Origin: Macrostomum lignano
Lineage: Eukaryota
Length of the DNA stretch: 40,869 bases
Direction: 5' to 3'
Assembly: GCA_002269645.1 (NCBI GenBank)
Contig: NIVC01003917.1
Coordinates: 1-40,869 of the forward strand
Position numbers and translations under genes: made by a program. The notes under the pieces were generated by a model. That model searched no databases. It saw only the letters and a list, made by a program, of their open reading frames with translations, and had not been told where the DNA came from. Of the stretch, positions 1,694 through 17,378 are shown one piece after another (within the stretch, counting starts at the first letter, position 1; every line of letters starts with the position of its first letter).

Positions 1694-1883
1694 AGTAGAA
1701 GGCATGAGGGGGCTTTTGGGACAAAATTTTTCACATCCTCCATAATCCCATTAAATCCATCCATATTATCCCTGACAGAATCAGAAAAAAGGGGGGTCGC
1801 ACTCGCTCACAAAACATCCTCCATAATCCCATTAAATCCATCCATATTATCCCTGACAGAATCAGAGCATAACAGGTGTCCTA
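1694..1883 (+). repeat. Left terminal inverted repeat of the Polinton (190 bp, with internal ~50-bp duplicated subunit)
   Basis: Reverse complement of 17189-17378 with about 5 differences. Confidence 0.93.
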
Positions 1884-2206
1884 CTGTTATGCTCTGAGGG
1901 TTTATGCTCTGAGCATAACAGCTCCAAATCCACCCATAACATTTCTAAAACAATCAGAAAAATAATCTGCATTCTTCTCCCCACATTCAATCCGCAACGT
2001 GCTACCACATCCCTAAGACTTTAAATCATCAGCGCAAGGTCCTTACCCATTGAAAAAATATAAATAATTTTATTATTCATTAGTAAGAATTATATATTTA
2101 TTAACAGTTGCACAGCTGATAGGATATGTATCAACTATTACAAGATTATCAAAAATGGTAGAAAAAACAGACACTATGTAGGATCTGAGTTAGAATTCTT
2201 CAACAA

Positions 2207-2630
2207 CATACAGAGCCAGCCTAGCGTTCCTTTGAGCCAGCAGCTAGATTCTCTAACGCCGTTAGAATTTTCTATGTGAAAATTTGGTGTGCCCAAGCTT
2301 ATCTTGCGGGAAACTTTTCACATAGAAAATTCTAACGGCGTTAGAAAATTTCTACCCCCCCTCTATTTAACCATACAGAGCCAGCCTAGCGTTCCTTTGA
2401 GCCAGCAGCTAGATTCTCTAACGCGTTAGAATTTTCTATGTGAAAATTTGGTGTGCCCAAGCTTATCTTGCGGGAAACTTTTCACATAGAAATTTCTAAC
2501 AGCGTTAGAATTTAAAACCCACCGACTGAGTTGCACACAGTACTGAGAAAATTGCTACCCTCCTCTACTTAACTAATCGGCTGTCTCCAGTTGTTGAATC
2601 TTCTCTTTGAAATTCTAACGCGTTAGAAAA
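2207..2630. repeat. 165-bp direct repeat (about 2 copies plus remnant) containing nested palindromes
   Basis: catacagagccagcc starts at 2207 and 2372. Arms 2252-2282 and 2315-2345 are perfect 31-bp inverted repeats. The motif TCTAACG(C)CGTTAGA occurs five times. Confidence 0.9.
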
Positions 2631-2655
2631 ATTCTAAATGAACTGAATTTAAAAA

Positions 2656-3333
2656 TTACACAACTTTCCACGCAGGATCACTGGCCAAAATTTCTTCTAG
2701 AAACTTCATCTTAGAGTTTAGTTCCCTAATTGGCATTGACACCTGTCTCAAGCCTGGGTAGGTAACAGACAGTTTGTACAGACGAATGTACAAATAGCCA
2801 GTTGATTCCTGGATGTTTACATTTTTACACAAATGGGCGAACCGCACTTTAACATCTTGTCCAAAGTTCTCGTTGCGATAAGTTTTTAGCAGCCGCCCAA
2901 CTTCGAGAATCCAATGTAGACCTCCAATTTGAGTCTTCTTGTATTTTGCTAGAGCCGCCTTCACCCTAGTGATGATGTTCTGCTCGCCAGATGGAAGCTG
3001 GTGATCAACAGCGTCCATCAGCTGATCAGCTAGTGTTACGCGGGATGCGTACAACTTCTCCCTGAATATCTGCAGATCCGCCATCTTCTTCTGCAGAGCC
3101 GCCGCCTTCTTCTCTTCGCTACTCACATTTTGCGCTTCATTCGCTGCGGCGATATCATCAGGGGCCATGGCGAAAAACTCGATTGGTAGGTCGCCAGTTT
3201 CTAGACCGAAAAAGGTGGTTAGTTCCTCTCTTCTTCTTGCTTGTAGATGTGACGGAATATCCTGTAAAACTCTTTGTAGCATGGCACAAAGGCCTTGCTT
3301 ATCTGTCAAATGAAGATTCCACTCGACTTCCAT
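2656..3333 (-). CDS. Polinton accessory ORF, 225 aa, helical; C-terminal half loosely resembles DUF3102-type helical/HTH domains
   Basis: Uninterrupted ORF with an aaaATG start. The family assignment (WILEVGRLLKTY...FAHLCKNVNIQESTGYLYIRLY) is by eye only. Confidence 0.6.
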   Translation of the reverse strand: MEVEWNLHLTDKQGLCAMLQRVLQDIPSHLQARRREELTTFFGLETGDLPIEFFAMAPDDIAAANEAQNVSSEEKKAAALQKKMADLQIFREKLYASRVTLADQLMDAVDHQLPSGEQNIITRVKAALAKYKKTQIGGLHWILEVGRLLKTYRNENFGQDVKVRFAHLCKNVNIQESTGYLYIRLYKLSVTYPGLRQVSMPIRELNSKMKFLEEILASDPAWKVV

Positions 3334-3796
3334 TTTCTAAATCTTCTTGTCTTCTAATCTTCTAGTTTGGCGGACTATTTCTTAGATCACTTTCAGCGTG
3401 CTTAAGTTCCTGCAGTCGTCGTTTCTCAGTCGCAGTTGATGGCATATGCGGGGAGAATCAACCCGAGTGTTTCTGCATTTGCTTAAATACAGCTATACAG
3501 CTAGAAAATTCCAGAAAATTCTAGACTGTACAATCTTGGAGTCAAGCAGGGAAAAACAATCGATATAGCTCAGTGTACGATAGAGCATGAGGCGTGAGAC
3601 TTCTCTGTACACAGAGCATAGCGCGAGGTGAGGAGTATGAAGGAGAAGGGCATGGTGGAAAGAGAGATTGTAACCGAAACCAGTGTGCTCAAGACTGTAC
3701 ACTTGTGTGGAGAGAAGAGAAGCGAAGGCCAGAAGGCCAGAAAACTTAACTCTTCTCCCAAACAGCCGCTAATCCAGCTGAATTTTCTTGCTTGAA

Positions 3797-4245
3797 TCAT
3801 TCTACTCTCTCAACCCCCAGCTCTTTCAGCAGTCTTCCTAATTCTTTACTTGGCGTGTGCAACACAAAGCCCGCCCCCAAACAACCGCCGACCCCCAACC
3901 CCAGCTTTTTCTTACCAAAAATAACCGCCTTGACTAATTTCCGAGCAATCGACTCACGAAATCCGCTTGAAGCCCCTATATTGTCTAGTCTCTTAAGCAT
4001 TTCTTTGTCCCAGCGATTCTTCTCCTCAGGAAAATCTCTATATTTAACATCGTGCCACATGCAGACAGAGTCTAGCTCGTTCACAGGCTCATGCCCAGGA
4101 TTGGATTATTGTTTTTATCTAACTGTATTTCAAGTGGATTCAAAGGCCCGCAATATTTATAGCCGGGAAGTGTCCAGCCTTTGTTTGGATGAGGAAGCTT
4201 TTCTATCAGTCCATGTGAATCTATTTTACCACCAGAGCGCTGCAT
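3797..4245 (-). CDS. Parvovirus-type phospholipase A2 domain protein (one apparent 1-nt loss near 4100)
   Basis: Reconstructed MQRSGGKIDSHG...WTLPGYKYCGPLNPL...(fs)PGHEPVNELDSVCMWHDVKY...WDKEM...KKKLGLG shows a Ca-binding-loop-like GYKYCGP and the catalytic HDxxY motif. Confidence 0.85.
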
Positions 4246-15739: not shown

Positions 15740-15758
15740 ATATTTTTTTTGGAAAAAA

Positions 15759-16621
15759 ATGGAAGCTATAGCCGAAAGACTAAACAACATTGTTTCACAC
15801 TCTAAGGAGAGCATTCCTATTACAATAACTGGGCGAATTAATGACTCAAACGGGATATTTATTCAAAAATTAGAGCAGGCGATTCGCCTGGATCCAGGTG
15901 CTAATTACCATGTCTATCTTAACGACTTCACTGGTTGGTCAAACGTTCCCAATGTGTCGGCAGCAAATAATAAGTTTTATTACAAATGGAAAGGTGCAGC
16001 AGCAGAACCTGTGGTATTCCCTGTGAGCACGCAAAGTGTGGATACCTACAATTACTTTCTAGAAAATGTCTTTACTAAAAGAGGCCATTTTGAGACACCT
16101 GATGCGAGTAAGCCAGATAAAAAATGTTCCCTGTCAAACTATCCTATGATCTCACTGTAATGAGAGTGGTCATGCAAGTTCACAAAGATGCGGAGGTTGA
16201 GTTTAAAGATGACACTTGGTATAGGGAATTGGGATTCGTGAAGAAAGTTTATAAGGCAGAATCCACAGCGCGGACTGTCACTCAAGCGACGGGGGCCGTT
16301 AGCATGGCCCGGGAAAGTGTACGCGGTTTGTTCTTAGCACCCAATATAGCAGACATTGTAAAGGGTTTGAATATTCTAATCAGAACTAATCTCAGTCTTG
16401 ATTGGGTATTTAAGGGAAAGCGAACTAATATTTTGTACAACATCTCCAACTCTGTAGCTGGAGGACAGATGGTGGTAGAGAAACCAAATCCAGTGAAAAG
16501 AGTTGTATTGAGTAATAAGGAGATTCACGAGATTGTGCTACAGTTTGAGACTGAAGATGGGATGGGTGTTGATTTCAACGGTGAAGAGTTTGTACTGACG
16601 TTGATCATTGAGAGAATGTAA
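15759..16621 (+). CDS. mCP: Minor capsid protein (penton, single jelly-roll; 1-nt loss near 16122)
   Basis: IRLDPGANYHVYLNDFTGWSNVPNVSAANNKFYY ... KRTNILYNISNSVAGGQMVVEKPNPV...IHEIVLQFETEDGMGVDFNGEEFVLTLII match Polinton penton N- and C-terminal patterns. Confidence 0.87.
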
Positions 16622-16625
16622 GAAA

Positions 16626-16865
16626 TCACAATTGTCTAATGATTTCTACAAAGTTATAGTAGCTGTCGTAATCTTTTACATAGGTTACTCCATACTTATG
16701 AAACCAGTGTCTTTGGAGAGCTAGATTAATATTAGGGACATTGATATCAACGTCGGGCCAATATTTTCTCATGTACTCGCTGCATTCAAGTTTGCATCGG
16801 TACTTACTCTTGTAATTAGGCTCGTGCGCTTTGTAATAAGAACCTGGAGAGACAACTGGAAACAT
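16626..16865 (-). CDS. Small Tyr-rich orphan ORF (79 aa)
   Basis: Has the same T-rich/aaaaATG start context as the other viral genes and its stop abuts the mCP stop. No recognised family. Confidence 0.5.
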   Translation of the reverse strand: MFPVVSPGSYYKAHEPNYKSKYRCKLECSEYMRKYWPDVDINVPNINLALQRHWFHKYGVTYVKDYDSYYNFVEIIRQL

Positions 16866-17188
16866 TTTTAGAGAAAATTTAATTTTTTTTCAAAGGGTAA
16901 GGACCCTGGGTTAGGGGATTCAAAGTCTTTGGGATGCGTTGCGAATTGCGAATTGAATGTGTGGAGAAGAATACAGATTGTTTTCTGATTGTTTCGAAGA
17001 TGCTATGGGTGGATGTCAGTGGATTATGTAGGACACCTGCTATGCTCTGATTCTGTCGTGGAGGAAGGAGGATAGGTTAGGAGGATTATGTTCGAAGTTT
17101 TGTAAGCGAGTGCGACACCTGTTATGCTCTGATTCAGGGATAATATGGATGGATTTAATGGGATTATGTTCGAAGTTTTCGGAGCAAC

Positions 17189-17378
17189 TAGGACACCTGT
17201 TATGCTCTGATTCTGTCAGGGATAATATGGATGGATTTAATAGGATTATGGAGGACGTTTTGTGAGCGAGTGCGACCCCCTTTTTTTCTGATTCTGTCGG
17301 GGATAATATGGATGGATTTAATGGGATTATGGAGGATGTGAAAAATTTTGTCCCAGAAGCCCCCTCATGCCTTCTACT
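17189..17378 (-). repeat. Right terminal inverted repeat of the Polinton
   Basis: Reverse complement of 1694-1883. Two further degenerate subunits extend inward to about 17030. Confidence 0.93.

Follow-up and report, generated by a model that had tools for sequence, protein, structure and literature searches.

The window analysed here is a 40,869-nt stretch of Macrostomum lignano DNA (contig NIVC01003917.1 of assembly GCA_002269645.1, positions 1 to 40,869 of the forward strand), and at positions 1694-17378 it contains a real Polinton-type element of 15.7 kb with inverted repeats at both ends (Table 1). An earlier note on this DNA, made from the letters alone, had placed the element between these boundaries, given the order and strands of its genes and described it as an animal Polinton that encodes a capsid, with four morphogenesis genes and a phospholipase A2 (PLA2). 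Our analysis bears this out: the outermost arms of the terminal inverted repeats (TIRs) are 191 nt long, 97% alike and inverted, both element ends start with AGTAGA, the map of open reading frames (ORFs) agrees with the order and strands, and Pfam matches, relatives and folds agree with the identity of the element. Gene presence, catalytic motifs and TIRs are the part of the case that was observed directly.

Table 1. Features of the element and of its flanks, in window positions
Feature	Position	Strand	Remarks
TENT5/FAM46 host exon	3-610	-	two reading frames
Left flank	623-1693		23-bp host satellite, upstream of TENT5/FAM46 exon
Left TIR	1694-2064		starts AGTAGA; ~81-bp internal subrepeats
Subterminal tandem duplication	2207-2642		164-bp period, 1.8 copies, interior to left TIR
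ORF225	2656-3333	-	open frame
Parvovirus-type PLA2	3797-4245	-	PF08398; two frames, break ~4.1 kb
rve integrase	4275-5311	+	PF00665, E 1e-8; DDE motifs in first piece; frame change ~4.8 kb
pX-like stand-alone ORF	5328-5777	+	PF05829 (Adeno_PX), E 5e-7; open frame
Protein-primed B-family polymerase (pPolB)	5902-9758	+	5 frame segments; breaks ~6.7, 7.2, 8.0 and 8.4 kb
Adenain-type maturation protease	9802-10202	+	PF00770 (Peptidase_C5), E 4e-5; frame change ~9.9 kb
Membrane (TM) protein	10206-10917	-	hydrophobic stretch by hydropathy; probable frame change ~10.7 kb
Coiled-coil-type ORF(s)	11009-11826	-	83-bp tandem duplication at frame-change site
Packaging ATPase, A32/FtsK-type	11843-12643	-	intact; PF04665 (Pox_A32), E 4e-6
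Short ORF	12876-13223	-	two GxG motifs, then possibly an amphipathic helix
Putative long Q/P-rich gene	13200-14424	-	many frames; from six-frame reading; no homologue
Major capsid protein (MCP), double jelly-roll	14455-15739	+	3 frame segments, breaks ~14.6 and 15.1 kb
Minor capsid protein (penton)	15759-16621	+	2 frame segments, break ~16.1 kb
ORF79	16626-16865	-	ORF call only
Right TIR	16879-17378		subrepeat copies outnumber those of left TIR
Right flank, host MFS transporter exon	17379-18169	-	PF07690; open frame runs straight into element end

Termini and gene content of the element

The outer 190 nt of the two TIRs differ by 5 substitutions and no gaps, and a fainter likeness carries the left TIR to about 370 nt (position ~2064) and the right one to about 500 nt (16879), with unequal copy numbers of the subrepeat inside them. 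TIR length and total size both fall within the ranges of Polintons/Mavericks (100-1500 bp and 13-25 kb), the norms for TIRs and for target-site duplications (TSDs) being those of bioRxiv 2023.08.22.554363 and PMC8097293. Each copy of the subterminal duplication contains a near-perfect hairpin of ~100 nt with arms of ~35 bp that are themselves palindromic, and a third, partial palindrome lies near 2606-2642. Folding of the hairpins gave z = -10.3 and -5.4, and a pattern for the hairpin core matched three times, all within the duplication, against 0.13 matches expected over the whole window; the pattern search found no such duplication at the right element end or in the rest of the window, and Rfam gave no match anywhere in the window. 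The hairpin could be an origin, an enhancer or a small foldback insert.

The Pfam scan, which covered 34 reading frames of the window, gave matches above cut-off for PLA2 (one of two pieces), the integrase, which is of the retroviral-like (rve) type, the adenovirus pX, the adenovirus endoprotease and the poxvirus A32 ATPase. The polymerase is a protein-primed family B enzyme, though split over its five frame segments. DNA_pol_B_2 scored below cut-off in two polymerase pieces and endonuclease VII likewise just below it; 17,823 representative proteins match the C-terminal piece of the polymerase at E<=0.001 (2,210 at E<=1e-30), with 37-48% identity among the best 150, this piece had no phage match by tblastn, and an intact polymerase relative had no sequence match in the PDB. 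Cys- and His-bearing motifs, putatively of the vOTU type, sit where the N-terminal OTU-like domain is expected, and the polymerase also carries motifs Exo I-III and Pol A-C. All catalytic motifs looked for were present in the element genes. The domain order of pPolB was taken from PMC11071308. An endonuclease VII-like insert lies within the polymerase; because its motif occurs in 55 of the 150 best relatives, the insert is common, and we rejected it as a novelty.

Among the morphogenesis genes, the two capsid genes were recognized through their relatives, the window pieces of MCP and penton having no Pfam match. The C-terminal piece of the MCP has 5 relatives at 61-71% identity among 736 candidates, and these tile the gene end to end; PF21738 (double jelly roll) is above cut-off in all three of the MCP relatives scanned, with only 29-43 bits, and in the Atlas the first match, whose recognition value falls short of the threshold, is a double jelly-roll cluster. 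The N-terminal piece of the penton has 9 relatives at 57-67% among 125 candidates, with no Pfam family in the 4 scanned, and its Atlas neighbours are viral clusters without names, at TM 0.78-0.79. AlphaFold models of both proteins are poor, with predicted local distance difference test (pLDDT) values of 38 for the MCP (from 5 sequences) and 48 for the penton (from 9 sequences). Foldseek placed the MCPs of Sputnik, mavirus, iridovirus and PBCV-1 at the top for the first model, and the mavirus penton followed by adenovirus penton bases for the second; as both models are of low confidence, these matches (TM about 0.2) are supporting leads only. A profile comparison did not connect MCP and penton (probability 0.1). 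Thus, a double jelly-roll MCP is present, with a single jelly-roll penton near its gene whose fold evidence comes from the pLDDT 48 model; the identities proposed earlier hold by intact relatives and by these low-confidence fold searches, and lack a Pfam match to the window pieces themselves.

The packaging ATPase and the adenain-type protease complete the morphogenetic set. The ATPase carries Walker A, Walker B and arginine motifs, has 30 relatives among 577 candidates, and aligns as one high-scoring segment pair (HSP) without stops to each of the five relatives tested. Nine of its relatives (62-78%) and the window protein form a 10-row clade with 100/100 support and a long stem in a midpoint-rooted tree of 31 unlabelled rows. 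In the protease, the His, Asp, Gln and Cys motifs are present. The PLA2 was matched in two frames (Pfam E 2e-6 and 5e-4; profile positions 1-19 and 21-78) and has its calcium-loop and His-Asp motifs, and the adenovirus pX-like segment is preceded by Gly-Gly.

Broken frames and mismatched flanks

The description of the element as complete stands for its gene content and fails for function, as five of the six core genes are broken in the copy as written, with MCP, penton, protease, polymerase and integrase not in one frame and only the ATPase open. Intact Mavericks, by the criteria of PMC8097293, have all core ORFs uninterrupted, and this copy as written does not. Mapped onto intact relatives (8 for the polymerase, 5 for the MCP, 6 of the 9 for the penton and 5 of the 30 for the ATPase), these genes fall into 5, 3, 2 and 1 frame segments, respectively; PLA2, integrase, protease and TM gene change frame as well, and the region at 12.8-14.4 kb does so many times (an approximate reading). 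In all, frame changes in the identified genes of the copy number at least 10, and the counts of the frame-tracking model are approximate, since it was trained on the same genes, missed PLA2 and made one false switch at gene ends.

Across the polymerase, MCP, penton and ATPase, the tiling matches are free of stop codons, except for two HSPs that overrun a break. In the 8,655 nt of frame pieces, which include 10 frame changes, 4.8% of the possible substitutions would create a stop, so that 2.4 stops are expected at 5 substitutions per indel and 4.8 at 10; the probability of finding none is 0.39, 0.24, 0.09, 0.009 and 0.001 at 2, 3, 5, 10 and 15 substitutions per indel, respectively. At 1.3% divergence, 5.4 stops would be expected, and the probability of none is 0.005. 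The host TENT5 exon is frame-shifted too (profile positions 70-131 and 148-243), being either an assembly error or a pseudogene. Because the breaks are frame changes without stops and a host exon is broken as well, sequencing error is slightly favoured over decay, and we give a somewhat better than even chance that most of the frame breaks stem from assembly errors left uncorrected in a multicopy repeat.

No TSD of 4-8 bp was found at any of the three boundary placements tried, so the 5-8 bp duplication of an intact insertion is missing; this lowers the case for an intact single insertion and leaves the family of the internal sequence unaffected. The element is flanked by TENT5 on the left and by an MFS transporter gene on the right, two different host genes that each apparently lack a part. 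The Pfam match of the MFS exon reaches profile position 323 of 347 just before the junction with the element, and two exons were recognized in the transporter gene (17379-20561, minus strand), the second truncated by the Polinton end; its 3' part was not found in the left flank of the window. The 5' part or upstream exon of TENT5 was found in none of 66 frames to the right of the element (on the minus strand, 64 frames with 48 codons or more, outside some of the repeat arrays; on the plus strand, 2 frames), and could lie outside that set. Since there is no TSD and the flanks derive from two different genes, the locus gives the impression of a rearrangement or a misjoin. Most simply, the element ends probably stem from separate insertion sites that were brought together by recombination between copies, by flanking deletion or by misassembly, or one flank was lost by deletion. 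Flanks that do not add up to a single insertion site give no evidence of a clean, recent, mobile insertion, and the earlier suggestion of a possibly mobile element is unsupported for the present copy.

Relation to described elements and competing explanations

Adintoviruses have already been described with the gene set of this element, PLA2 and pX included. These animal-associated viruses (Starrett et al. 2021, PMC8502044), whose family is now named Eupolintoviridae (PMC12451622), have the same core genes, and the element shares with them an animal host, inverted terminal repeats, a pPolB that is putatively of their OTU type, the rve integrase, the FtsK-type ATPase, adenain, hexon and penton; the animal host is indicated by nearby exons of the Tau/MAP-repeat, SERBP1/HABP4, TENT5 and MFS families. 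PMC8502044 names PLA2X, pX-bearing proteins, cupiennin-like and SLATT genes (in its text or in the labels of Fig. S2), and PLA2 was already drawn on Polinton maps in PMC3671162; PLA2 was thus rejected as a novelty, and the entry module that the earlier note had singled out is the described norm. Adintovirus PLA2 usually has a C-terminal pX (PLA2X), whereas here PLA2 and pX are separate and on opposite strands. Similarly, the element resembles Polintons/Mavericks in general (PMC4028283; PMC8097293; bioRxiv 2023.08.22.554363) in its size (15-20 kb in the group), in TIRs starting with AG, in its six core genes, in the penton beside the MCP and in the nuclease insert in pPolB, a known feature of the group. 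It departs from them in having no 5-8 bp TSD, in the terminal hexamer, AGTAGA instead of the (AGT)2 or (AG)3 of vertebrate Mavericks (PMC8097293), in that no fusogen gene was seen in it, and in its MCP, which is divergent as judged by the low PF21738 scores of the relatives. The separate PLA2 and pX, the unusual hexamer and the divergent capsid lineage are small differences from the described pattern.

What appears to be new, judging from sequence comparison, is the lineage, which is poorly sampled, with only 5, 9 and 9 close relatives for MCP, penton and ATPase and best polymerase matches below 50%. These relatives (P0001-P0005 for the MCP, P0186-P0194 for the penton, P0156-P0163 and P0169 for the ATPase) are 57-78% identical over the queried pieces and have open frames on contigs of 0.9-4.9 kb, in contrast to the frame-shifted MCP and penton of the element. 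The signals for its place within the adintoviruses are mixed. Alphadintovirus combines a pfam03175-type PolB with PLA2X, and Betadintovirus a divergent PolB with GasderminX and cupiennin (PMC8502044). In the element, PF03175 is below cut-off in two window pieces and absent from all three intact polymerase relatives examined, and no gasdermin was matched in the Pfam scan. PLA2 hints at an Alpha-type virion module, and the polymerase relatives without PF03175 would not match Alpha; the module swap reported in PMC8502044 is the opposite of such an Alpha-virion/Beta-polymerase pairing.

Our literature search found no paper describing the family of the element; Repbase/Dfam and the host table of Starrett et al. 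lay outside that search, and prior cataloguing is possible. Flatworm names had no match in the part of the Starrett supplement covered, the host table and sequence files lying outside it, and the coral polintovirus preprint (10.1101/2023.10.06.561300) makes no mention of PLA2 in the part covered. According to 10.1101/2025.04.19.649669, the majority of 781,111 endogenous viral regions belong to Orthopolintovirales and Polinton-like viruses, and insertions of these kinds are present in Rhabditophora; its supplements could list the element.

By homology, from which we infer all of these steps, the polymerase polyprotein of a working copy would use protein priming at the inverted ends to replicate the linear genome, and the putative vOTU domain would release the terminal protein (terminal-protein priming and vOTU cleavage are treated in PMC11071308), while insertion of the element by the rve integrase would create a short target duplication. 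An icosahedral capsid would be built from MCP and penton, the ATPase would package the DNA and the protease would mature core proteins, in line with the dual transposon/virus life and the morphogenetic module of MCP, penton, ATPase and protease discussed in PMC4405056 and PMC4028283. In addition, pX and PLA2 would assist membrane crossing, the entry role of PLA2 being argued by analogy from parvoviruses (PMC8502044, PMC4061559). The virion competence of the present copy is unproven.

Taken together, we put the probability at about three in four that the element is a capsid-encoding Polinton/Maverick of the adintovirus type integrated in an invertebrate genome, with breaks that are more likely than not mostly assembly error and ends that probably come from different sites. 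Several observations weigh against this. If the ratio in this host is as low as 2-3 substitutions per indel, zero stops would be unremarkable (P 0.24-0.39), and some of the frame pieces in the stop count were picked because they were open. One host frame change was seen in ~4.4 kb of exon against 5.1 expected at the rate of the element (P ~0.04), a shortfall due in part to fewer homopolymer runs in the host exons (8.5 per kb, compared with 16.2 per kb in the element). No single-base offset occurs in 43 unit intervals of the 23-bp satellite next to the element (another array has 5 in 36), the capsid models have the low confidence noted above, and the evidence comes from one copy in the assembly. 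Some of the same observations would fit a genuinely decayed provirus, a fossil copy whose frame changes arose by mutation in the germline and whose target duplication was lost to a deletion next to it: the two TIRs show 5 mismatches over 190 sites, breaks are more frequent in the element than in host exons, the neighbouring satellite lacks single-base offsets, and erosion affects 96% of Maverick loci in vertebrates (PMC8097293). However, the lack of in-frame stops at 1.3% divergence, the intact state of all catalytic motifs checked and the frameshift in the host TENT5 exon speak against decay, which we regard as possible and distinctly the less probable cause of the breaks.

The opposite view, that this is a badly sequenced young copy from an active, virion-forming polintovirus lineage of the host group, is about as doubtful. 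It is consistent with the relatives on short contigs whose MCP, penton and ATPase frames are open, with the fully supported, long-stemmed ATPase clade and with the retention of all morphogenesis genes, but there is no TSD, the TIRs are not identical, and searches with three proteins (MCP, ATPase and penton) found no copy above 90%. A more specific form is more speculative still and, in our view, unlikely: an undescribed active invertebrate lineage with a distinct MCP/penton/ATPase clade, PLA2 uncoupled from pX, possibly a Beta-like polymerase, hairpins acting as a cis-element, and breaks from assembly error. Finally, the top fold matches to the Sputnik and mavirus capsid proteins and a terminal hexamer that differs from both common vertebrate motifs (PMC8097293) could suggest a Polinton-like virus or virophage-type insert instead of a Polinton proper. 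This is very improbable, given that the element combines a full pPolB, exonuclease included and with 2,210 representative proteins at E<=1e-30, with an integrase of the rve type, and has pX and PLA2 as in animal adintoviruses (PMC8502044); the virophage matches probably reflect which relatives have solved structures.

We consider the importance of the element modest. It enlarges a group that is already well known by one more capsid lineage, a divergent one, and also illustrates that a gene map that looks complete can conceal broken frames and mismatched flanks. Polinton virions in animals have been predicted, not observed (PMC8097293, PMC4028283), and if there were a host with open, expressed copies, which the present copy alone does not provide, it would be a place to seek natural Polinton particles.

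Remaining frames and neighbouring host sequence

The other ORFs of the element have few identifiable features, and NCBIfam and PHROGs gave weak or irrelevant matches only for those without a family. ORF225 had no meaningful match in Pfam, PHROGs or NCBIfam; ORF79 had none in the same three collections and may not be a gene. The TM protein has a weak 2TM-domain Pfam match below cut-off and is presumably SLATT-like. In the coiled-coil region, the distal half was not called coding by the frame-tracking model. A 21-bp tandem repeat of ~5 copies (12682-12787) lies between the ATPase and the short GxG ORF, which had no family match and may be cupiennin/pVI-like. Its helix was rejected as a sign of a membrane-lytic protein, as its moment (0.49-0.57) does not exceed that of the best windows of other ORFs (0.38-0.57). 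Over 12790-14427, nine frame switches were counted approximately, including one end artefact and one gene boundary, and the ORFs that the earlier note called core-like and Q/P-rich seem to be fragments of a single long gene that is broken up, with the short ORF after it. The core-like label found no support, there being no family match and a composition (26 K+R and 18 D+E in 176 aa) on which we rejected a basic core protein. A KilA-N match at 13614-13850 was weak and below cut-off, and was discarded.

Beyond the element, the MFS intron contains a foldback resembling a miniature inverted-repeat transposable element (18442-19138), with arms of ~259 nt that differ by 6 substitutions and 1 gap, and weaker related pieces lie near 22758-22815 and 32473-32588. 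A SERBP1/HABP4-family gene (26991-29299, plus strand) has two open exons and a very long Gly/Arg-rich region. A Tau/MAP tubulin-binding repeat gene (34245-38480, minus strand) consists of single-repeat exons, of which 4 frames match PF00418 and more are visible by eye, with introns that are largely minisatellites of 8-31 bp. A dispersed repeat of ~160 bp occurs in three copies that are 72-92% alike (21957-22137, 26648-26774 and 32056-32236). The plus-strand translation of a GC-rich segment at 30900-31500 resembles the tail of a non-LTR retrotransposon ORF. In a way that may recall the genomes of free-living flatworms, the element is AT-richer than the GC-rich host exons, and the host introns carry minisatellites.

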